Translations under genes and position numbers: made by a program
The notes under the pieces: model-generated
Seen by the model: only the letters and a program-made list of their open reading frames with translations
Databases searched by the model: none
Told to the model about the DNA's origin: nothing
Part shown: positions 44,526-63,089 of the stretch, one piece after another
Layout of the letters: the number at the start of each line of letters is the position of its first letter
Numbering within the stretch: position 1 is the first letter of the stretch
Source: a candidate division NC10 bacterium CSP1-5
Lineage (GTDB): Bacteria; Methylomirabilota; Methylomirabilia; Methylomirabilales; CSP1-5
Assembly (NCBI GenBank): GCA_001443495.1
Contig: LDXR01000007.1
Coordinates: 51,398-115,397 of the forward strand
Reading direction: 5' to 3'
DNA length: 64,000 bases

Positions 44526-45320
44526 CTAATCTTTTTTTGGCGCTGGACCCTTCGCCCGGCGGTCCAGGACCTGCTTGGCGGCCCGGGAGACCGCGGCAGG
44601 GATGTTGCGATCGCTGGCCAAGAACTTGAGTTCCCTGTCGGTGAGATTGGGAAGCCCGAGAGCCAACGAGACCCCCACGGGAGTTTTCGGATTGTGGAGG
44701 AGGCCGGTGATCACCAATTTGTTGGCCCGGAAGCGCCGGATGTTGGCGATGGCCCTGAGGACTTTATCGGAGATATCCCGCATTTGCGCGATAATGGCAA
44801 TCTCCTCGTCGCTGATGCGCGGGCTGTTCACCACCTCGAGGGCGATCATGTCGTTGGGGTCCTTGATCAGGATCATCCGCGCGTCCTTATTCCCCTTCTT
44901 CGCCAGGGCCAGCTTCTGCCCCGTGTTCATCTCCCGGATCAACTGCACGAGGGTCTTCTTGCGCTCGCGCTCTTCTTTCGTGGTTTCGTGCAGGATCCAT
45001 TGCACTCTGCGGCGGTCCGTCTCGGTCAGGCCGGGGTTCTTGAGGAGGGCATGGCCCACGACGGGGTTGTGAAAGATGAAGACCCGATCCTCCAGCAGTT
45101 GGGCCGCCACCGAAGCCGGCGCCCGTTCCGCCATATAGATAATGGCGGGGAGGGGGGTCAGGGGATTCGCGACGAGGAGCTTCCAGAGTTCTTCATCATC
45201 GGGGAATTGGGCGGGCAACTCCTCGAGGAGCTGGGGCTCTATCTCTTGCGATTGGGCGAGGCGGGTAGCCTCATCGCGGGTGAGCGCGGACGGAGTCGGA
45301 GTGGCGCTCGGATCGCTCAT
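44526..45320 (-). CDS. Conserved hypothetical helical-repeat protein, translationally coupled to selA
   Basis: Its ATGA overlaps the selA stop. The sequence has repeated ...NP.TP... helical units. I recognise no catalytic motif. Confidence 0.7.
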   Translation of the reverse strand: MSDPSATPTPSALTRDEATRLAQSQEIEPQLLEELPAQFPDDEELWKLLVANPLTPLPAIIYMAERAPASVAAQLLEDRVFIFHNPVVGHALLKNPGLTETDRRRVQWILHETTKEERERKKTLVQLIREMNTGQKLALAKKGNKDARMILIKDPNDMIALEVVNSPRISDEEIAIIAQMRDISDKVLRAIANIRRFRANKLVITGLLHNPKTPVGVSLALGLPNLTDRELKFLASDRNIPAAVSRAAKQVLDRRAKGPAPKKD

Positions 45321-46753
45321 GAGCTCAGCTCATCTGCAAGTATTGGACCGACGGCGCCGATCAAAAGCCCCACCTCGTCCTCGCGGACAGTTCGCATATC
45401 GAGGAGAACCTTTTCCCCTTTGATGCGCGCCACCACAGCCGGCTCTGCTTCCCTGAGCAGGGCCTCCAGTCGATGCGGGGACACCTCGGACCTCTGAAGC
45501 GCGACGCAATACGTGGGGAGGCCCTGGGCAGGAAGCGCCCCCCCTCCCACCTCAGACCACTGCTCCTCGACGGTCACGCGGACCGAGGGATGTGCCCGCG
45601 CCTGCAAGCCCGCGCGCACCCGCTCGGCGCGCTGCTCGATCTCGTGGAGCGGGCAGGCGATCATGGCCAGGGCGGGAATGGCACCGAGACCCTTCTCCCC
45701 TTCTAGGTAGGCCCGGAGGGTAGCCTCGAGGGCCGCGAGGGAGAGTTTGTCGATGCGCACCGCTCGCGCCAGCGGGTTTTTCCGGAGGCGCTCGATCATC
45801 AGCTTTTTCCCTACGATGAGCCCCGCCTGGGGCCCTCCGAGGAGCTTGTCTCCGCTGAACGCGATCAGATCCACCTCACTCCGAAGGGTCTCCTGGACGG
45901 TGGGCTCCCCCTTGAGGCCGAATGGGGCGAGATCGGCGATGGCGCCGCTGCCCATGTCGATCATCACCGGGAGGGCCCGGCGCCGGCCCAGCGCCACCAG
46001 GTCCGCGAGGGGGACGTCGCTGGTAAAGCCGAGAATCCGAAAGTTGCTGGGGTGCACCTTCAGGAGCAGGGCTGTCCTCTCCCCGATCGCATCTTCGTAG
46101 TCTTTGAGGCGGGTCCGGTTCGTGGTGCCCACCTCCCTGAGAACCGCCCCCGCCTTTCGCATGACGTCCGGGATTCGGAAGGAGTCTCCGATCTCGATCA
46201 ACTCCCCTCGGGAGACCACCACCTCGCGGCCTTCGGCGAGCGTATTGATGCTCAGCAGGACGGCGGCAGCGTTGTTGTTTACCGCAAGGGCCCCCTCGGC
46301 TCCCGTGAGGCGGGTGAGAAGGCCCTGTATATGCCCTTGCCGAGAGCCTCTGGCGCCTCTGGGGAGATCGAATTCTAAGGTCGAGTAGTGCTGCGCGACC
46401 TCGTGGAGGCGGGCCAGCGCCTCAGGAGACAGAGGGGCCCGGCCGAGGTTCGTATGGAGGATGACCCCGGTGGCGTTGATCACCCGGCGCAGGCTTGGGC
46501 GGGCCAGGTGCAGGGTCTTGCGGCACACCTGCGCGAGGAGTGTGGAAAGATCGGGGACGAAAGTCTCGATCCCCTCGCGGAGGAGGGCTAGAATCTTTTG
46601 TCGGCGCTCCTCGAGGGTCTCCCGGACCGCCTCGATCACCGTCCACCGGGGATACGCCTCGAGGAGTTTCTGGATGACCGGCTCCTGGAGGAGTTCGTCG
46701 ACCGACGGAATCTGGCGGAGGAGGAGGCCCGCCTGGTGCTCTGGAATAGCCAT
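45317..46753 (-). CDS. selA: L-seryl-tRNA(Sec) selenium transferase
   Basis: VINATGVILHTNLGRAPL, STLEFDLPRGARGSR, VNNNAAAVLL, VVSRGELIEIGDSFRIPDVM, VGTTNRT, KVHPSNF and FSGDKLLGGPQAG (PLP lysine) are present. Confidence 0.93.
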   Translation of the reverse strand: MAIPEHQAGLLLRQIPSVDELLQEPVIQKLLEAYPRWTVIEAVRETLEERRQKILALLREGIETFVPDLSTLLAQVCRKTLHLARPSLRRVINATGVILHTNLGRAPLSPEALARLHEVAQHYSTLEFDLPRGARGSRQGHIQGLLTRLTGAEGALAVNNNAAAVLLSINTLAEGREVVVSRGELIEIGDSFRIPDVMRKAGAVLREVGTTNRTRLKDYEDAIGERTALLLKVHPSNFRILGFTSDVPLADLVALGRRRALPVMIDMGSGAIADLAPFGLKGEPTVQETLRSEVDLIAFSGDKLLGGPQAGLIVGKKLMIERLRKNPLARAVRIDKLSLAALEATLRAYLEGEKGLGAIPALAMIACPLHEIEQRAERVRAGLQARAHPSVRVTVEEQWSEVGGGALPAQGLPTYCVALQRSEVSPHRLEALLREAEPAVVARIKGEKVLLDMRTVREDEVGLLIGAVGPILADELSS

Positions 46754-54471: not shown

Positions 54472-54933
54472 ATGCTCAGTCAATCCACTAGGTGGCGATT
54501 GACGACGCAACTCGAATGCCTTCAAGTCGTACTGGGCGGGAGGGATGCTGCGGTGATCAACCGGCGTCCGGCATCAGGCAAGTGGTCGGCCCACGAGAAT
54601 CTCGCGCACCTCGCTCGGATTCACGAAATCTATCTCGAGCGAATTCGCCGGATCCTGAGCGAGGAGCGGCCACAGCTTCCCCGGTACACAGCCGAGGATG
54701 ACCCGGAGTGGCCGCAGTGGGTGAGGATGTCAACCGAGGAGGTCGTGCAGCGGCTGATGGCGCTACGAGATGAGCTCGTCCGGGTCGTCACACCGCTCTC
54801 CCTGGACCGCCTCAACCGGATCGGTGTCCATTCCGCGCTCGGTGGCATGACGATTCCGGAGTGGATCGAGTTCTTCCTGCTACACGAGGCGCATCATCTC
54901 TACGCTGCGATGCAGCGCGCTCGCGACGGATAG
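54472..54933 (+). CDS. DinB-family protein
   Basis: [16 protein letters not shown] and ...[15 protein letters not shown] are present. Confidence 0.8.
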
Positions 54934-55148
54934 ACCGTCGGGGGTTTGTGCCTAGAACTGGAGCGTGCCCCGCGCCCGCAACTCAGAGGGGCGAAGGCTG
55001 TGATAGACGAAGGCAATACGCATCGCGGATCTCCTGGCAAGTGACTCCAAAGCCCTGAAACCATCACGCCCCACTGTTCGTCTATTATACGTCAAGGTGA
55101 GTTACGTCGGATTCCAGCAGTGCCTCAGGCACCAGGGGGATGTGAACC

Positions 55149-55847
55149 ATGAAGATTGTTTCCGTCAACGTGGGACTGCCGCGGGAAGTGATCTGGAAGG
55201 GTAAGAGAGTCACCACCGGGATCCTTAAAGAACCCATCACCGGGCGCGTGATGATGCGGAGGCTGAATCTGGACGGGGACCGACAGGCGGACTTGTCCGT
55301 CCACGGTGGACCCAGCAAGGCGGTGTATGTGTACCCGGTCCAGCATTATGACTATTGGCGGGGGGAATTGCCTGAGATGAAGCTGCCCTGGGGCATGTTC
55401 GGCGAAAATCTGACCACCGAAGGATTGCTGGAGGATGCCGTCAGCATTGGAGATCGGCTTCGCATCGGCTCAGCCGAAGTGATGGTGACTGAACCGCGGA
55501 TGCCCTGCTACAAACTGGGGATTAAGTTCGGGCGGGAGGACATCATCAAGCGGTTTCTGAGAAGCGGTCGGACCGGCTTTTATGTGGCGGTCTTGCAAGA
55601 AGGTGAGGTCGGAGCCGGAGACAGCGTGGATCTCATCGGTCGCGACGGAAACGATGTCACAGTGGCCGACATCACCCGCTTATACGTGAATGAAAGGGAC
55701 AACCTGGACCTGTTGCATCGCGCGATCCAGGTCGAGGCCTTGCCCGAAAGCTGGCGCGACCACTTTCGGCAGCAGATCCAAAAACTGGGTCGCTCCGTGG
55801 AGAGAGAGCGGCAGGCGAAGTCGCGGGCATCGCCGTGTTGTGAGTGA
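55149..55847 (+). CDS. MOSC-domain protein
   Basis: GDRQADLSVHGGPSKAVYVY, ...GENLTTEGL and ...EPRMPCYKLG are present. Confidence 0.85.
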   Translation: MKIVSVNVGLPREVIWKGKRVTTGILKEPITGRVMMRRLNLDGDRQADLSVHGGPSKAVYVYPVQHYDYWRGELPEMKLPWGMFGENLTTEGLLEDAVSIGDRLRIGSAEVMVTEPRMPCYKLGIKFGREDIIKRFLRSGRTGFYVAVLQEGEVGAGDSVDLIGRDGNDVTVADITRLYVNERDNLDLLHRAIQVEALPESWRDHFRQQIQKLGRSVERERQAKSRASPCCE

Positions 55848-55859
55848 GCGAAAGGGCAA

Positions 55860-56834
55860 CTACGACGCGCTGGCGCTCATGCCCATCGGAGACGCGGGAC
55901 TGCCCCGGGACTCGACGGCAAAGCCCCGTTCGCGCCAGGCGTCAAAGCCACCGGCGAGTGGTCGGACGCGCGTGATCCCTCGCCGCCGTAACAGAAGCGC
56001 CACCCGGGCGCTCGAGGCCTCGCTGGGTCACGTGCAGTACAGGACGAGCTCGCGGTTGCGCGGGATTTCCTGGTGGCGCTGCTCGAGTTGATCCGGCGAG
56101 AGCTGGATGGCGCCGGGAATGGTCGCTGGCTCTGCCTCGAAGTCGAGCGAGTGACGCAGATCCACGACCACCAGATCTTCGCCGGCATCGAGCTTGCGTT
56201 TGAGTTCCTCCGGGGTGATCCGGTCGATCCGCAGCCGGCGCACAAACCGACGCCGCTGCACATACTTCCAGCCGATGTACCCCGTCAGGGCGACCACGAG
56301 AATCAATACGAGCCGGGCGCCGAGCTCCGCAGCGTGGGCTGCAACCCGCTCGATTTGATCACTAAAGACGAAGCCGAGCCCCGTATACGCGCCCACCCAA
56401 ATCAATGCCCCCACCCCGTCGAAGAATAGAAAGCGCGGGAGCCGCATGCGGAAAATCCCCGCCAGGGGCGGTGCCACCGTGCTCAATCCAGGGACGAACT
56501 TAGCCACGATCAGCGAGCGGGCGCCATGCCGGACGAAGAAATCTTCCGTCCGGCGAACGCATGAGTCCGGCTCGAGGGCGATCCGGCAGAGGAGCTGCAA
56601 GACCCTGCTGCCGCGTCGGCGACCCAGCTCGTACCAGATCGTGTCGGCGAGCAGCGTCGCCAGGGACCCCACGCCGATGGCGAGGGCGAAGCTTAATTGC
56701 TCGGCGCCGGCAAGGGCTCCGGCGGCGAGCATCAATGGGGCGGCGGGGATGGGCAAACCGACCTGCTCGACGAACACCACCGCGAACAGGACCGAGTACC
56801 CGTGCCGGATCAGGAACTCCAGTGCCTCACTCAT
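55860..56834 (-). CDS. DedA-family membrane protein fused to a rhodanese domain, with an in-frame UGA at the rhodanese active-site position; candidate selenoprotein
   Basis: The track ORF 56028..56834 stops at ...RELVLYCT-TGA(56030..56028). The same frame continues PSEASSARVALLLRRRGITRVRPLAGGFDAWRERGFAVE..., which completes the rhodanese fold, to TAG 55862..55860. A hairpin follows the UGA. Confidence 0.65.
55996..56012 (-). promoter_or_regulatory. SECIS-like hairpin downstream of the rhodanese UGA
   Basis: The mRNA forms AGCGCC-CGGGU-GGCGCU (6 bp). It starts 15 nt after the UGA. Confidence 0.4.
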
Positions 56835-57103
56835 CGCAACGGTCCCCTCCTTCGCTCTTGCGAGCCTGCGAGGTTAGTAATACGTCCGCAGGTAATGACG
56901 GCAGCCCACGGAATGATGGACACGAGCAACGATTCTAGCAGCCGTTGGGGCCTGTGCATCCCGGTTCTGGCGTTAGGCGACCGGCCACCCGGAAGGCGCC
57001 GCTCACCACCTGCCCCCCACCCTGTAGCAGCCCCCAAAGCGCATCACTCTCATCGGTTGTCGCGGGACTCGCGAAGGCAAGGAGGAGCAGCGGCGCCAGT
57101 GCG

Positions 57104-57568
57104 CTACTCTTCGACCACCGCGCCGTCCCATTCGATCGCGATGCCCCGCTGCACGGACTGCGAGGCCGGACAGCCTTTCTCGTGGATCTCGATCGCACGC
57201 AGGGCCTCCTCACGCTTTCCCTGGGGAACCTTCACGTGATAGTGGACCTTGATCCGCGTGATCAGAGGTTTGCCGTCTACATTCTCGATGAAGCCCTCCA
57301 CCTCCGAGGACAACTTGTCCGGCTGTGTCGGAATCTTGCGTGCCGCTAGCGCCCCGGCCAGCGTGCCGGTCATTCAGCCGGCCACCGCGGCGATGATGTG
57401 GTCGAGGGTCGTGGGCACGTCCTCCGGCGGCTCCACCCCGTAGAATTTCTTGATCCCCCCGTGGACGCCGTAGCGGACCGGCTCGGGAAAGTTCTCGATG
57501 TAGGCCCGGCGGAGGGGACCCTTATCCTTGATGATTTTCACCTTGGAGACGTGAATCAACTCAGCCAT
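57104..57568 (-). CDS. OsmC/Ohr-family peroxiredoxin-like protein with an in-frame UGA at the first conserved Cys position; candidate selenoprotein
   Basis: Track ORFs 57374..57568 and 57104..57373 are contiguous and in frame, separated only by TGA 57376..57374. The junction reads ...LDHIIAAVAG-U-MTGTLAGALAARKI.... The second OsmC Cys motif (EKGCPASQS) is present. Confidence 0.7.
57344..57363 (-). promoter_or_regulatory. SECIS-like hairpin downstream of the OsmC UGA
   Basis: The mRNA forms CGCUGGC-CGGGGC-GCUAGCG (7 bp including one G-U). It starts 10 nt after the UGA. Confidence 0.4.
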
Positions 57569-57681
57569 GTTTGCTCCTCCTTGTCAGAATGGGACGTTTC
57601 TTCTTTTGATGTCCGGCGCTCCCCGTTGGATTCACCGAGTGTCGGCCGCTTCCCTTGGAGTCTCAAAGCGACAGCGTCGGG

Positions 57682-58521
57682 CTAAACTGCACCATGCTTC
57701 TTAAGCCACTCCTGCAAGCGCTTCCATCCATCTTCGGCCGGTTCCCTCCGGTAGCTGGGCCGGTAGTCGGCGTAGAAGGCGTGGGGTGCTCCGGGGTAGA
57801 CGATGATCTCTGACGGACTCCCCGCCGACTTCAGGGTCTTGCGCATCTCCTCGACGGTATCGAGCGGGATGCCCGGATCATCGCCTCCGTACAGGCCGAG
57901 GACGGGGGCCTTGAGCGCGCCGACGACGTCGATCGGATACTGGGGCTGCAGTTCCGTGCGATTGCCGGTGAGCCGGCCGTACCAGGCCACGCCGGCTTTG
58001 AGCTGGGGGTTGTGGGCGGCATACAGCCAGACGATCCTCCCGCCCCAGCAGAACCCGGTGATGCCGAGCTTCGCGATGTTCCCTTTGCCGCCCGCCTTGG
58101 CCCACGCGACGGTGGCGTCGAGGTCCGCCATCACCTGCGCGTCGGGGACCTTCGAGACCACTTTCGCGAAAATCTCCTTGCTCTCGGATATTCCCGACAC
58201 ATCCCCCTGGCGGGCGAAGAGCTCGGGGGAGACAGCGAAGTAACCCATCTTCGCAAATCGGCGACAGATATCCTTGATGTGTTCGTGAACGCCGAATATT
58301 TCCTGCACGACCAGGACCACGGGGAACGCAGTTCCGGTGGCCGGCATCGCCCGGTAGACCGGGATCTGGCCATCGGCGGTCGGAATCTTCACCTCACCCG
58401 CGATCAACCCGCTGGTATCGGTGGTGATCGTCTGTGCTGATACAGGGCGTACGGCGAGCGCGAAGCCGACAGCCAGTGTGGTCATGACAAACTCTCGCCG
58501 TGTGAACTCCGTCTTGGGCAT
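57682..58521 (-). CDS. Tat-exported dienelactone hydrolase-family protein
   Basis: The Tat signal is [28 protein letters not shown] is the nucleophile elbow. I chose ATG 58521 over the track's TTG 58584. Confidence 0.85.
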
Positions 58522-58593
58522 CAGGCTGCGTAGTTCCTCGTCCAAACCCTGATTCCTCCTTTCCCATCCGGTGTTGGGGGTCAAGGGCGGGAC

Positions 58594-59223
58594 TCAACGC
58601 CGCAGCAACTTGAAGCCGATGCCCGAACCCATCTTTTGCGCATATGCGAGATGAATCCAGAGCATGGCTAGTGGCTCGAGCAGGCGCGCCGCCTGCAAGG
58701 GACCAGCATCCACAGCCTCGAAGCCGAGCTCTTGGGTGAGTCTCGCAACGGCAGTCTTGGCTGCAGCGTCATCGCCGCAGATAAACATCGTAGCCTGCTC
58801 GGCGCCGAAGTGTGGACTCGCCATGTTTTCGGCGCCGGTCATATTGAACGCCTTCACGATGCGAGCGCCCGGTGTCTTCTTGGCAATCTCTTCGGCGGCA
58901 GACGTGGTGTGACCGATCTCCAGGCCGCCCAAATCTTGCTTGAGCGGATTCGTGCAGTCGATCAGAATCTTGCCCGACAACGGGCCAGCCGCTTTGAGGG
59001 CGTGGTCCACAGAGGGCCAAGGAGGAGCGAAAAGGATAACCTCGCCGAACTGCACAGCCTCGGCAGGGGAACCCGCCCGAGTGTTGGGGCCGGCCAACGT
59101 GGCGAGACTCTCCAGTTTTTTGGGGTCCCGCGAGTAGCTGAAGAGAATCTTGTGGCCACGCCTCGCCCAGGCCTTTCCCAGCGTGCTGCCCACATTGCCT
59201 GAGCCAACAATCCCGATGTTCAT
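58594..59223 (-). CDS. NADP oxidoreductase, coenzyme F420-dependent family (Npd-like)
   Basis: The Rossmann motif is MNIGIVGSGNVGSTLG. ATG 59223 is preceded by GGGGAGAAGAGG. Confidence 0.8.
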   Translation of the reverse strand: MNIGIVGSGNVGSTLGKAWARRGHKILFSYSRDPKKLESLATLAGPNTRAGSPAEAVQFGEVILFAPPWPSVDHALKAAGPLSGKILIDCTNPLKQDLGGLEIGHTTSAAEEIAKKTPGARIVKAFNMTGAENMASPHFGAEQATMFICGDDAAAKTAVARLTQELGFEAVDAGPLQAARLLEPLAMLWIHLAYAQKMGSGIGFKLLRR

Positions 59224-59244
59224 CCTCTTCTCCCCAGTCATTTC

Positions 59245-60234
59245 TTACGGGGTTGTAATCACCGCGCGGAAGCGAACCTTGCCTTCAGCAACACGCTCGT
59301 AGGCCTTGGTGATTTCGTCGAGTCGGTAGGTTTCGGTAATGACCTTTACCTTGCCCTGTGCGGCATAGTCAAGGGCCTCGTAAAGGAACTCCATCCCGTT
59401 TTGCTGTGAGCCGATGATCCGAAGGCGCTTCAAGATGGCGTCGGCTGGTGGGACCGGAAAGGGTTTGGCCTCGTAGCCCATCAGAACGAAACGCCCGTCA
59501 GGGCGTAGTCCTTGGATGCTGTCGGCCATGGCGTCGTTCGAGTTACTGGTGCCGAGGATCACGTCGGCACCCCCGATACCGGCCAGGCCCTGCCCATCGC
59601 GGACGATCTCATCGGCCCCTAGCTGGCGGATGGACCGATCCTTGTCGGGCGACCGGGAAACCGCGATCGTGGTGAAGCCGGCGGCCTTCGCGTACTGCAC
59701 CGCGAGGTGGCCCAGGCCACCGATGCCGACCACGGCGATGCGCTCGTGCGGTTTGGGCTCAGCAATCCGCAAACCAGACCACACCGTATAGCCGGCACAC
59801 AGGATGGGTGCGGCCTGCTCGTAGGAAAGCCCCTCGGGTAGAAGCACGGCGGCGTTTGCATAGGCCAGCATGAATTCGGCGTGGCCGCCTGACATCTCCC
59901 CGCTCGTGCCCGCTTGCTGCGCGCAGAACATGGGTGTGCCGCGGAGACACCACTCGCAGCGCCCACATGCGGCTTGCAGCCAGGGCACCCCCACGCGATC
60001 GCCCACGCGCCGCATGGTGACACCCGGACCGACGGCGACGATCTCCCCCACCGGTTCGTGTCCCAGGATGCGGGGGAAGTCTCCCGGCAGCTCGCCCCTG
60101 GTCTGATGCACGTCTGTGTAACAGATCCCGCTGCCGCGGATCTTGATCAAGACCTGATTGGGGCCCGGTTCCGGCGTTGGAACCTCCTTCACTTCCCATT
60201 TCCCGTGAACAGTGGGAACCACTGCAGCTCGCAT
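59245..60234 (-). CDS. Zinc-dependent alcohol dehydrogenase
   Basis: GICYTDVH, ...GHEPVGEI..., the structural-zinc Cys cluster CGRCEWC and GIGGLGHLAVQYAK are present. Confidence 0.9.
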   Translation of the reverse strand: MRAAVVPTVHGKWEVKEVPTPEPGPNQVLIKIRGSGICYTDVHQTRGELPGDFPRILGHEPVGEIVAVGPGVTMRRVGDRVGVPWLQAACGRCEWCLRGTPMFCAQQAGTSGEMSGGHAEFMLAYANAAVLLPEGLSYEQAAPILCAGYTVWSGLRIAEPKPHERIAVVGIGGLGHLAVQYAKAAGFTTIAVSRSPDKDRSIRQLGADEIVRDGQGLAGIGGADVILGTSNSNDAMADSIQGLRPDGRFVLMGYEAKPFPVPPADAILKRLRIIGSQQNGMEFLYEALDYAAQGKVKVITETYRLDEITKAYERVAEGKVRFRAVITTP

Positions 60235-60246
60235 GATCCTGGCTCC

Positions 60247-60819
60247 TCAACGGCCGTCGCGAGGCGGGACGATCCAGTAGTAGACCGTGTGCTGGCCGCC
60301 CGACACCGTCACCCTGATCGTCTTCTCCGGTTTCCAGTCGCCCATGTCGTAGTTGTGCGACACGACTCGGGTCCCTGACCGCAGCTCGCTCAAGAGCTTG
60401 GGTCGCAGCTTCATGTTCACGGACGGCAGCAAATACAGCGTCACCACGGTCGCCTCGCGAAGGTCGGCCTGGAAGATGTCTCCTTGCAGGAACTGCACGC
60501 GGTCTGTGACGCCGGCCTGCCGTGCGTTATCGTTCGCTTCCTGGACGCGCTGCGGGTCGAGGTCGATGCCGACTCCGCGGGTACCGAAGTGCTGGGCAGC
60601 GGCGATAACGATCCGCCCGTCGCCGGAGCCGAGGTCGTACAGCACGTCGTTCGCGTTCACGTTGGCCACCTGCAACATCTCGGTGACGACAAGCATCGGA
60701 GTGGGGACAAATGGGACGTCAAGGTCCGGCACCGTTGTGACGGTCTGCGCATTGACGGGCAGCGCGACCAAGAGACACAGCGCGAGGAGAGCCATGGTGG
60801 GAGGTCGTTGATATCGCAT
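60247..60819 (-). CDS. Exported class I SAM-dependent methyltransferase
   Basis: AGGAGG lies 8 nt before ATG 60819 and a signal peptide is present. The SAM motif is VLYDLGSGDGRIVIAAA. Confidence 0.8.
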   Translation of the reverse strand: MRYQRPPTMALLALCLLVALPVNAQTVTTVPDLDVPFVPTPMLVVTEMLQVANVNANDVLYDLGSGDGRIVIAAAQHFGTRGVGIDLDPQRVQEANDNARQAGVTDRVQFLQGDIFQADLREATVVTLYLLPSVNMKLRPKLLSELRSGTRVVSHNYDMGDWKPEKTIRVTVSGGQHTVYYWIVPPRDGR

Positions 60820-60905
60820 CTCATATTCCTCCTTGTAGGATGTCCCAACGTGGGACAAGCAGGATCAGTGCGCCAACGGCGCGACTGTCGCATCGGCATA
60901 CTATT

Positions 60906-61520
60906 TCATCGAGCCTTTCCATGGACGAGGGGCGAGGGTTGGCCCCACTGACCGCTGAAGACAAAGGAGTCCAGGGGCTTGCGGGTGCGCGGGGCCAGCT
61001 CGCGCTCACGCAGGTCATCTGGCAACCGGCCCGGATCGTCGAGATAGCCGATCGCCATCACCGCGACCGGCTCGTAGCCCTCGGGGATCCCGTACACCTC
61101 CCGCGCCCTGTCCACGTGGAATCCGGCCATCTGGTGGACGAAGAGGCCGAGGGCCATCCCCTGGATTACCAAGTTTTCGACCGCCAGACCGACGTCATGA
61201 AAGGCGTGTCGATTCGGCTTCCGGTTTCTCTCAAAGGCCAGCCTGGCCACCGAGAGCATGAGGACCGGCGCATGCTGGGCCCATCGGACGTTGCCTTCGA
61301 CGAGACAACTCAGCAAGCGCTCGTATTCACCTGCATGCCCCTTGGTGGCGACGATGAAGCTCCACGGTTGCTCGTTGTAGGAGGACGGCGCCCATCGAGC
61401 GGCCTCCAGAAGGCTGCGGAGCTTGTCCGGTTCAACCACGCGGTCGGCGAAGGCGCGCGGGCTCCAGCGCTCCCGCAGCAGCCCGTGAATCTCGTGTGTA
61501 GTCTCGGCGAGTTTCTGCAT
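60906..61520 (-). CDS. Nitroreductase-family protein
   Basis: RWSPRAF and ...AARWAPSSYNEQPW are present. Confidence 0.9.
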   Translation of the reverse strand: MQKLAETTHEIHGLLRERWSPRAFADRVVEPDKLRSLLEAARWAPSSYNEQPWSFIVATKGHAGEYERLLSCLVEGNVRWAQHAPVLMLSVARLAFERNRKPNRHAFHDVGLAVENLVIQGMALGLFVHQMAGFHVDRAREVYGIPEGYEPVAVMAIGYLDDPGRLPDDLRERELAPRTRKPLDSFVFSGQWGQPSPLVHGKAR

Positions 61521-61548
61521 CGTTGATTTTCCTCGCTGATCATGGCGG

Positions 61549-61824
61549 TCACACCGATTTGCCCTCTACATATGCCCGCAACATCCAGGCCATTTTTTCG
61601 TGCTTCTCCATCAAGCCGGTCAGGAAGTCGTTCGTGCCGATGTCGTGGTAGCGGTCCGCACAGGTCTCGAGGTCCACGCGCAGCGCCCGAATCAGTGCCT
61701 CGTGGTCGGCGAGGAGGTAGTTTTTCGTCTTCGTGTTCAGCACATATTCGTCGGCGAGGACCGTATTGAGAATCTTTACGACGCCTTCACCCTCCTTGTT
61801 GGCCAGTCCGATGTTCGGTTTCAT
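61549..61824 (-). CDS. Dps-family protein with a large internal in-frame deletion (mini-Dps or decaying gene)
   Basis: The Dps N-terminus (MKPNIGL...LNTVLADEYVLNTKTKNY) joins directly to the Dps C-terminus (LLADHEALIRALRVDLETCADRYHDIGTNDFLTGLMEKHEKMAWMLRAY). The protein is 91 aa instead of ~155, so the helices that normally carry the ferroxidase ligands are missing. Confidence 0.65.
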   Translation of the reverse strand: MKPNIGLANKEGEGVVKILNTVLADEYVLNTKTKNYLLADHEALIRALRVDLETCADRYHDIGTNDFLTGLMEKHEKMAWMLRAYVEGKSV

Positions 61825-61876
61825 GTGTGTTCCTCCTTGCTGTTTGGCTCAATGTGCGAAGACTAAAGCATGGTCG

Positions 61877-62575
61877 CTACGGTAGGTCCAGGAAGATCAG
61901 CGCCGCGGCTTCCGTGGCCTGGAGCGCCAGCTCCGGTTCGTCGGCAATTCGGGCCTGGTCCCCTGCCGCGAGGGGGGTACCGTTCACCGTGAGGCTACCG
62001 GTAATCACAAAGAGGTAAGCCTTGCGACTCGGTCGACTCTTGTGGGTCACTTCCTGTCCCGCCCGCAAGCTCGACACGTAGATGACTGCGTCTTGGTCGA
62101 TGGTCAGTGTTTCCGCAACGTTGCCCCCAGACACAACCGGCAGGAGCTTTCCGCCTCGCTCTTCGACCGTGAAGCGACGCTGCTCCCATTGAGGGGGAAG
62201 GCCCTTCGTCCGGGGCGTGATCCAGAGCTGAAGCAGGTGAACGGGACGCTCTGTGGAGTGGTTATACTCGGCGTGGACGATCCCGGTGCCGGCGGACATC
62301 CCCTGGACCTCGCCGGCACGGATGACCCCGCGGTTTCCCTGGTTATCCTGGTGTTCCAGCTCTCCATCCAGAACATAGGTGACGATCTCCATATCGCGGT
62401 GCGGGTGGGCACCGAATCCCTGCCCTGGCTGGATGATGTCGTCGTTGACGACACGGAGCGCCCCCCAGTTCATGTTGGCGGGGTCGTAGTAATCATCAAA
62501 GGAGAAGTGCCAGTAGGTGGAGAGCCACCCGAGGTCTCTGTGGTGCCGCTCTTTGGATTGGATGATTTTGATCAC
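61877..62575 (-). CDS. Pirin-family protein
   Basis: GFGAHPHRDMEIVTYVLDGELEH and ...MSAGTGIVHAE are present. Confidence 0.9.
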   Translation of the reverse strand: MIKIIQSKERHHRDLGWLSTYWHFSFDDYYDPANMNWGALRVVNDDIIQPGQGFGAHPHRDMEIVTYVLDGELEHQDNQGNRGVIRAGEVQGMSAGTGIVHAEYNHSTERPVHLLQLWITPRTKGLPPQWEQRRFTVEERGGKLLPVVSGGNVAETLTIDQDAVIYVSSLRAGQEVTHKSRPSRKAYLFVITGSLTVNGTPLAAGDQARIADEPELALQATEAAALIFLDLP

Positions 62576-62618
62576 GCGCGTTACCTTTGCTATGACAGCG
62601 GGCTGATTCCCTGCTCAA

Positions 62619-63089
62619 TCAAGCGGTCTTCTCGCGCGCGAGCTCCAGGAGTTCGACCAGCGCCTGGAGCCGCTTCGTCCCCAGGTGCCCCAGGTGCTGC
62701 GTGTGCAGATGAACGATCGGAGCGTCGAGGCGCCTCAGGAGGCGGAGCCCCCCTTCCGTGATCCGAACCATGACGACCCTCCGATCCTTCCTGTTGCGCT
62801 CCCGCGCGATGAGTCCGCGGGCCTCGAGCCGATCAAGGAGGCGGGTGACGTCGGGGTCACGGGTGATCAGGCGTTCGCACACTTCCCGGCAGGCGAGCCC
62901 GTGGGGACCGGCGCCCCGCAGGATGCGGAGCACGTTGTACTGGGGGTGTGAAAGTCCGACCGACTTCAGGACCTTTGCCTGGCCGCGCAACAACGCATCG
63001 GTGGTCCGCAAGAGGTTCAGAAACGCCTCTTGCTCCAGCGTCCGGAAGGGCTTCTTTTGTTTGATCTCTGCCTGCAGCCGTCCAGCCAT
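62619..63089 (-). CDS. MarR-family transcriptional regulator
   Basis: HPQYNVLRILRGAG and ...TRLLDRLEARGLIARERNRKDRRVV form the wing. Confidence 0.9.
   Translation of the reverse strand: MAGRLQAEIKQKKPFRTLEQEAFLNLLRTTDALLRGQAKVLKSVGLSHPQYNVLRILRGAGPHGLACREVCERLITRDPDVTRLLDRLEARGLIARERNRKDRRVVMVRITEGGLRLLRRLDAPIVHLHTQHLGHLGTKRLQALVELLELAREKTA

Follow-up and report, generated by a model that had tools for sequence, protein, structure and literature searches.

Rhodaneses with a selenocysteine (Sec) in a C-x-U motif have been described as rhodanese form 3 and are credited to Zhang and Gladyshev, 2005 (PMC13188914, PMC9312934). Fusions of a DedA membrane domain (COG0586) with a rhodanese domain are also known, and the role of the rhodanese in these has been called unclear (PMC10127716; PA1209 in PMC12893004). 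Here, the subject is a gene that brings the two together. It lies on the minus strand of a 64,000-nucleotide (nt) stretch of contig LDXR01000007.1 from candidate division NC10 bacterium CSP1-5 (below, the window), and its rhodanese domain is interrupted by an in-frame UGA. Judged by comparison with its relatives, it is very probably a genuine selenoprotein gene, encoding a 324-residue inner-membrane DedA-rhodanese protein. Both parents are known, of course; the combination with Sec appears to be undescribed. Literature searches for DedA together with selenoprotein terms brought up no account of a DedA that contains Sec, the selenoprotein reviews PMC13188914 and PMC9312934 do not mention DedA, and the list of Sec-containing transporters in the 2026 review (PMC13188914) has no entry for DedA or for a Na+/H+ exchanger.

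Several described systems resemble parts of this protein. That rhodanese selenoproteins were known before, as the initial annotation of this DNA stated, is borne out by the curated family NF041203 and by PMC13188914. Members of NF041203 share with the window domain the motif [LF]YC[AT]-U-P[NS]E with its Sec column, and a bona fide member, L086, has the same hairpin pattern downstream. The family model, however, describes a stand-alone protein of about 126 residues, and the example that passes the family threshold carries a lipoprotein-type signal peptide, whereas the window domain forms the C-terminus of a DedA protein and is predicted to be cytoplasmic. Fusions of the Pseudomonas aeruginosa PA1209 type, compared here by their published description, have the same PF09335 plus PF00581 architecture; they have Cys, and the published descriptions mention no Sec. 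The undecaprenyl-phosphate (UndP) flippases YqjA and YghB of E. coli and UptA of B. subtilis have a homologous membrane domain, to which the window protein adds a rhodanese domain and two invariant cysteines in a loop predicted to be cytoplasmic.

Two further systems attach a rhodanese to a membrane. TsoB (NF045694) is a membrane protein fused to a Sec-rhodanese, and its rhodanese part gives a weak match (E 1.7e-4); it differs by a membrane domain like that of DsbD, by its UxxxxU motif, and by having two Sec residues (PMC13188914). E. coli YgaP, a structural match (5hbl), tethers a single rhodanese to the inner membrane, but there the rhodanese lies N-terminal to two transmembrane helices, no DedA is present, and a Cys stands in a canonical six-residue loop.

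As it is called by standard methods, the gene is a minus-strand open reading frame (ORF), 56834..56028, that begins with an ATG at 56834, runs for 268 codons, and ends LVLYCT-TGA. The frame then remains open for 55 codons (PSEASSARVALLLRRRGITRVRPLAGGFDAWRERGFAVESRGSPASPMGMSASAS) to the TAG at 55860..55862; in the same-frame translation, the first residues past the TGA are PSEASSARVALLLRRRGITRVRPLAGGFDAWRERGFAVES. The start position is common to homologues and to the related locus L001. The GenBank entry, KRT70046.1, is a 268-residue “hypothetical protein” of candidate division NC10 bacterium CSP1-5, and relatives are deposited as “hypothetical” or “VTT domain-containing” proteins of the same length. 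The initial annotation had placed the end of the ORF at YCT-TGA and had followed the frame beyond it; ending, continuation, and coordinates are all found in the window sequence, and its claim that the 55 codons complete a rhodanese domain agrees with the Pfam Rhodanese match, which spans the TGA.

Such a TGA might, of course, be a true stop. The product would then be a DedA protein of 268 residues that ends in an inactive, cut-off piece of rhodanese, and what follows the TGA would be a decaying remnant or an assembly error. Gene callers and GenBank do give 268 residues (KRT70046.1; “VTT domain-containing protein”), and a protein search returns database homologues of exactly this length, 69-91% identical, all ending LYCT. 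Against this stand the homologues of about 320 residues, which read LYC[TA]-C-PNE[AV]T[SA]AR across the UGA column; in the alignment, every full-length database homologue has Cys there. This is the invariant Cys inside the active-site loop, as the initial annotation had expected of the UGA column.

DNA from related loci speaks to the same point. It was fetched for 80 loci, one per GTDB species, mostly from Acidobacteriota, with others from Methylomirabilota/Rokubacteria, Nitrospirota, and metagenome-assembled genomes of Deltaproteobacteria/Binatia. The column is TGA in 68 of the 80 and TGC or TGT in the other 12, a survey of Sec and Cys forms that the initial annotation had called for, and the relatives that keep TGA span at least four phyla. 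In all 68, the frame stays open after the TGA, and the protein sequence downstream is strongly conserved (P-N-E-A-T-S-A-R-V-A-L-L-L...G-I..R-P-L.G-G..W), with synonymous variation free outside a hairpin described below. The identical 268-residue ORF occurs on at least 23 independently assembled contigs. This conserved open frame in species-level relatives from several phyla, its coding type of synonymous variation, and the independent contigs leave the reading as a true stop effectively refuted.

Three other origins were considered and rejected. A pseudogene is not compatible with the open frame conserved past the TGA in 68 of 80 loci. A sequencing error would not recur in at least 23 independent contigs and in 68 species-level relatives. 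A reassigned genetic code is rejected because TGA is the most frequent ordinary stop of the long ORFs in the window (25 TGA, 10 TAA, and 7 TAG; n = 42); the standard code therefore applies.

A neighbour-joining tree of the 81 sequences has Sec as the ancestral state and four changes to Cys, separate and nested. Its sample comprises the 80 closest species, and more distant fusions, mostly of the Cys type, were left out of it. That codon 269 would be decoded as Sec is well supported by these comparisons.

A hairpin offers itself as the signal for inserting Sec. In elements of the fdhF type, the bacterial selenocysteine insertion sequence (SECIS) is a hairpin in the coding region, shortly past the UGA, with G or U in the apical loop. 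Here, AGCGCC-CGGGU-GGCGCU begins 15 nt after the TGA (core 55996..56012), and a G-U closing pair extends it to 55995..56013. Its apical loop, CGKGU in the family, lies about 23-27 nt after the UGA, where a bacterial SECIS loop is expected, and the G/U residues of the loop fall at about 23-26 nt. The stem is very short when compared with the fdhF type (6-7 base pairs), the loop has 5 nt, and no bulged U is evident. Rfam at its gathering thresholds gave no match in the whole window; it has no model for bacterial SECIS elements.

The initial annotation had noted this hairpin, which is indeed present; the alignment adds that its nucleotides are constrained in TGA forms alone. Among the 69 such forms, a stretch of 17 nt (AGC GCC CGK GUG GCG CU, codons +6 to +11) is nearly invariant, third positions included. 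Third-position entropies in the five hairpin codons of the Sec forms are 0.19, 0, 0.83, 0, and 0.22 bits, the 0.83 being that of the loop codon, as against 1.3-1.8 bits at flanking four-fold sites; the same positions in the 12 Cys forms have 0.41, 1.38, 0.92, 1.28, and 0.92 bits. Of the 69 Sec forms, 67 can make all six core pairs; of the 12 Cys forms, only 1 can. Across the alignment, 94.5% of the pair cells are paired, and shifting the register lowers this to 21-69%. At the closing position, CG (28), GC (10), GU, AU, and UA pairs occur, and 23 of 65 sequences have no pair there; one locus, L022, has a compensatory change from C-G to U-A. The hairpin also constrains the local amino acids of the Sec forms, which read S-A-R-V-A-L; in Cys forms, Leu or Met stands in place of Val, and Arg is sometimes Gln. 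The element thus fits, as far as the aligned sequences go, a bacterial SECIS hairpin, to which SelB carrying Sec-tRNA(Sec) would bind so that UGA269 is decoded as Sec.

The window also encodes SelA. The E. coli protein matches 45374..46723 in tblastn (44.6% identity, E 3e-93), 9.3 kb from the UGA gene and in an unrelated gene neighbourhood. Downstream of selA come a 264-residue ORF without assignment, tmk, holB, and metG. The 264-residue ORF (44526..45320, minus strand) has a start that overlaps the selA stop by 4 nt and has no match in Pfam or NCBIfam; it may be genuine and coupled to selA, or it may be a shadow ORF; an ORF of 469 residues lies on the opposite strand.

The presence of SelA bears on a further alternative, in which the UGA is recoded to something other than Sec, either to Cys by a system like that of SelB and its tRNA, or by plain read-through. 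Uncultured soil bacteria are reported to have unusual systems of Sec/Cys recoding, and all homologues without TGA carry Cys at the column. SelA, however, is specific for the synthesis of Sec-tRNA(Sec), the hairpin has the position and the G-containing apical loop of ordinary bacterial SECIS elements, and the family that the domain matches best is already curated as a selenoprotein family. Recoding to anything but Sec is accordingly held to be highly improbable.

A second probable selenoprotein gene lies directly upstream. This OsmC-like gene has an in-frame TGA in the context AAVAG-TGA-MTGTLAG, at an AG[C/U] site, and public calls split it into ORFs of 64 and 89 residues. Full-length homologues mostly have Cys at the TGA position (Gly in P0150, Trp in P0159), and more than 100 database clusters consist of 89-90-residue 3' halves, called from the ATG after the TGA. 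The TGA is kept in L001, L204, L205, L207, and L210-L212, which include three unrelated genomic contexts, and a candidate hairpin, CGCUGGC/GCUAGCG, begins 10 nt past it. Because the gene scores only 24 bits against NF041052 (“OsmC_like_Se”, cut-off 95), it may represent a separate OsmC selenoprotein subfamily. A scan of the window for genes with an in-frame TGA gave seven candidates, among which only the OsmC-like gene looks like one interrupted frame; one of the other six has an ATG a few codons past its TGA. With two conserved UGA/Cys genes and selA in hand, Sec decoding in the CSP1-5 genome is very likely. A literature search on whether NC10, Rokubacteria, or Acidobacteria use selenocysteine found nothing relevant.

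Where does the Sec stand in the rhodanese fold? The best NCBIfam match of the domain is to NF041203 (rhodanese_LYCAU; 88.3 bits, profile positions 19-126), whose cut-off of 115 bits it does not reach. The LYC[AT]U motif of that family is present as LVLYCT-U, with Sec two residues past an invariant Cys, and is kept across the loci. The loop is thus C267-T-U269, and both C267 and residue 269 are invariant. An AlphaFold2 model of a Cys homologue (P0005; 66% identical, predicted local distance difference test score 84.7, numbering the same through the rhodanese active-site loop) has a strand at 262-266, a loop or coil at 267-272, and a helix at 273-284. Its best Foldseek matches are single-domain rhodaneses, with a root-mean-square deviation of 1.5 A for 3tp9. 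Certainly, then, Sec lies within the active-site loop, where it makes up a C-x-U pair together with C267.

The initial annotation had gone further and had the UGA replace the persulfide-forming Cys. This stands insofar as the UGA lies inside the loop and on the invariant Cys of the homologues; as to the canonical Cys, pairwise and profile HMMER, MAFFT, and the secondary structure of the model do not agree. In ungapped HMMER alignments, residue 269 falls on the catalytic Cys of 6mxv and 3iwh; in gapped ones, to 3tp9, 5ve3, and 6pfz, a gap of two residues brings C267 to that position. With E. coli GlpE, PspE, and YgaP added, all three MAFFT modes place the canonical Cys on C267; the loop is then two residues longer (C-T-U-P-N-E-A-T-S), with U269 two residues into it. 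By analogy with other selenoenzymes, Sec would be expected to act as the attacking nucleophile, with C267 as partner.

The membrane part is a diverged DedA domain. It is 28% identical to E. coli YqjA in alignment, and its scores against the NCBIfam DedA/UptA equivalogs are far below their cut-offs. Described flippases have an acidic pair, Glu39/Asp51, at the tip of re-entrant helix 1 and a basic pair, Arg130/Arg136, at the tip of re-entrant helix 2; PMC10127716 regards the four as essential for, and as the signature of, UndP flipping driven by the proton motive force (PMF), and argues that subfamilies without them do otherwise. The window protein keeps E39 of YqjA as E23, together with the GRxxG, F/G, and P motifs. 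Its counterpart of D51 is Ala32, with no acidic residue nearby, and so the acidic pair is broken. So is the basic pair, since R130 has become K112 and R136 has become S118 (a position that is S, N, or G in the family). The absence of D51 and R136, two of the four residues, speaks for a role of this DedA subgroup other than UndP flipping. One metagenome contig (L081, WNGQ01136698.1) has a tandem duplication of about 130 residues of the DedA domain, with GALAGTG...FLLFDAL present twice, which may be an assembly artefact or real.

The two loop cysteines, C83 and C92, are absent from YqjA, C83 lying within a two-residue insertion that YqjA lacks. Basic residues cluster at 69-106 (nine Arg), at 129-134, and at 190-205 (KYVQRRRFVRRLRIDR), and residues 157-174 are slightly acidic. 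This positive-inside pattern of charge, taken with the modelled helices, predicts that the C83/C92 loop and the rhodanese domain both lie in the cytoplasm.

Features of the DedA-rhodanese locus and of associated genes in the window
Feature	Coordinates	Strand	Basis or remark
Recoded coding sequence	55860..56834	(-)	324 codons, UGA (Sec) as codon 269, plus TAG 55860..55862; sequence, alignment with homologues of ~320 residues, frame in 68 loci
UGA codon 269, read as Sec	56028..56030	(-)	TGA/Cys column in related loci and homologues
Codon of Cys267, invariant, C of the C-x-U motif	56034..56036	(-)	Sequence and alignments
SECIS-type hairpin G-AGCGCC / CGGGU / GGCGCU-U	55995..56013	(-)	Inside codons S275-L280; starts 14-15 nt past the UGA
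Rhodanese domain, residues 207-302, interrupted by the UGA	55929..56216	(-)	Pfam PF00581, 52.5 bits (cut-off 22.2)
Last transmembrane helix and basic linker, residues 173-200, KYVQRRRFVRRLR	56235..56318	(-)	Helix 173-200 in the AlphaFold2 model of P0005
DedA/VTT domain, residues 29-154	56373..56750	(-)	Pfam PF09335, 52.1 bits (cut-off 33.9)
Segment with C83 and C92 (LCRIALEPDSC), Arg-rich loop predicted cytoplasmic	56559..56588	(-)	Invariant in three alignments
Shine-Dalgarno-like AAGGAGG	56846..56852	(-)	11 nt upstream of the ATG; read from sequence
OsmC-like gene, second probable selenoprotein	57104..57568	(-)	PF02566; directly upstream, co-directional; in-frame TGA 57374..57376
Nitroreductase-family gene	60906..61520	(-)	PF00881; often found next to DedA-rhodanese genes
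selA, L-seryl-tRNA(Sec) selenium transferase	45320..46753	(-)	TIGR00474 equivalog, 600.7 bits (cut-off 267.9)

Gene context offers the next kind of guidance. Clustering of neighbourhoods by raw ORFs is noisy because of shadow ORFs in high-G+C DNA, and called genes with Pfam matches were used instead. The DedA-rhodanese gene ends a co-directional run on the minus strand (window 56831..63089), whose order is common to close relatives: MarR, pirin, a ferritin-like protein, nitroreductase, a methyltransferase, a Zn-dependent dehydrogenase of the quinone oxidoreductase type, an NADP oxidoreductase (F420_oxidored), dienelactone hydrolase, the OsmC-like protein (Sec), and the DedA-rhodanese (Sec). 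On the opposite strand, 54472..55847 (+), lie MOSC/YiiM and DinB_2, and beyond them genes for a molybdate ABC transporter and moaC. NC10/Rokubacteria relatives at a greater distance (72-74% identity) retain the nitroreductase, a Zn-dependent alcohol dehydrogenase, an aldo-keto or short-chain reductase, a hydrolase, the TGA-split OsmC, and the DedA-rhodanese. The Acidobacteriota have a nitroreductase gene on the same strand, some 20-40 nt upstream, in about 40 of the 81 loci, beside Sec and Cys forms alike. The cluster resembles an oxidant- and electrophile-defence set, of the kind of a regulon for thiol-reactive electrophile or quinone stress.

The spacing within the run differs between close relatives. 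In L001, a 91% identical locus, 35 nt separate the OsmC stop from the ribosome-binding site of the DedA gene; compared with it, the window has a 237-nt insertion (56866..57102) between the OsmC-like stop and the DedA-rhodanese ribosome-binding site. The insertion is unique in the window and is found only in contigs of the same species (L201-L203). No promoter-like match was found in 55700..57200.

The same rhodanese module is not confined to DedA. Metagenome contigs were scanned with a DNA pattern of UGA plus hairpin, and at least 120 of them matched. The pattern fixes the bases of stem and loop, and the hairpin is therefore present in the matches by construction; the informative part is that one UGA-plus-hairpin module occurs in several architectures. 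Among the matches listed, most are DedA fusions, about 12 are small stand-alone rhodaneses, and six are fusions to Na+/H+ exchangers (PF00999). These six (L109, L120, L130, L135, L156, and L169) are proteins of about 540 residues with a conserved LCDC motif in the membrane domain and, C-terminally, a rhodanese that reads IAYCA-TGA-PNEATSARVAQELRQAGW. Three of the stand-alone C-x-U Sec-rhodaneses (L086, L118, and L167) have an N-terminal sequence like that of a signal peptide or lipoprotein (e.g., ...VVFIAC...), and by this feature would be exported, unlike the domain fused to DedA. L086 clears the NF041203 cut-off at 165 bits; scores of 95-99 for the cytosolic stand-alone forms and of 100 for an exchanger fusion lie below it. 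By these scores, the window protein is a relative of NF041203 and no formal member.

What might such a protein do? It is tentatively proposed that the selenol and C267, perhaps with the cytoplasmic C83 and C92, would form a redox or chalcogen-transfer site, working through a selenenyl-sulfide or a per(seleno)sulfide and anchored on the cytoplasmic side of a diverged DedA transporter. The site would work with the flavin or NAD(P)H oxidoreductases of the cluster, and would act within the defence set against oxidants and electrophiles that includes MarR, pirin, nitroreductase, the quinone-type oxidoreductases, dienelactone hydrolase, and the Sec-OsmC. Roles as an UndP flippase or as a selenium importer are less likely.

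A different view takes the C-x-U rhodanese not as an enzyme, but as a portable sensor. Its reactive selenol would let oxidants, persulfides, or electrophiles switch an attached, PMF-driven transporter. The module, with the same UGA and hairpin pattern, is indeed found at the C-terminus of two unrelated transporter families, DedA and PF00999, as well as alone, and its gene context is like that of stress defence. Kef K+/H+ antiporters, which are gated by glutathione adducts and have flavoprotein partners, provide an analogy. We know, however, of no regulatory precedent among rhodanese selenoproteins, and the stand-alone and lipoprotein-type forms (L086, L167) argue for autonomous catalysis; the present data fit sensing and catalysis alike. 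Sensing without catalysis is a possible reading, if a doubtful one. Somewhat more doubtful still is a broader conjecture, under which the C-x-U Sec-rhodanese is a mobile cytoplasmic module on at least two unrelated ion- or proton-coupled transporters and controls transport as a selenol redox/electrophile switch or as a substrate trap.

The initial annotation had pointed to selenite. Here, the DedA domain would import selenite (or thiosulfate, sulfite, or tellurite), and the Sec-rhodanese would capture and reduce it at the inner face. Rhodaneses can, of course, carry selenium. The lead itself has a source, as a DedA mutant of Ralstonia/Cupriavidus metallidurans has been tied to selenite resistance (Ledgham 2005, cited in PMC10127716), and no specific prokaryotic selenium transporter is known (PMC13188914). 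The gene context, however, is defence-like and lends no support to selenium uptake: no sulfur or selenium assimilation genes lie near the DedA-rhodanese gene in any lineage examined, and selA is 9 kb off among unrelated neighbours. The same module occurs on Na+/H+ exchangers. An importer of selenium that itself requires selenium would also be awkward, and four lineages have swapped Sec for Cys. Chalcogen uptake is consequently regarded as unlikely.

Several observations weigh against the interpretation of the gene as a selenoprotein gene with a redox or chalcogen-transfer role. Searches by tblastn with E. coli SelB and SelD found no selB or selD in the 64-kb window or in the fetched loci, and ARAGORN and Rfam found no tRNA(Sec) in the window. 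Folding of the 63 nt next to the UGA gives z = -0.75, an ordinary stability for this G+C content (63%), at which stability alone is no evidence, and four of the seven hairpin pairs never vary, which leaves true covariation thin. The case for the hairpin rests, for these reasons, on the constraint at synonymous sites that is specific to the TGA forms. Further, the alignments disagree on whether C267 or U269 corresponds to the canonical nucleophile. Much of the synteny comes from a single phylum, where common descent rather than selection may account for it. Finally, the functional part draws only on residue conservation and gene neighbourhood.

Public annotation, then, systematically shortens the product of this gene and those of many relatives, an error that the recoded reading corrects. 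That reading adds a membrane-transporter fusion to the prokaryotic selenoproteome, in lineages abundant in soil and groundwater, and the frozen hairpin provides a simple DNA pattern with which further members can be found. For the DedA field, it bears on the question of how the rhodanese is linked to UndP flipping, a link that has been called unclear (PMC10127716): a Sec in the active-site loop argues that the rhodanese domain is chemically active. If the conjecture of a mobile module that controls transport is true, it would provide the first functional handle on the DedA-rhodanese fusions, and a use of selenocysteine in the regulation of transporters that has not been described before.

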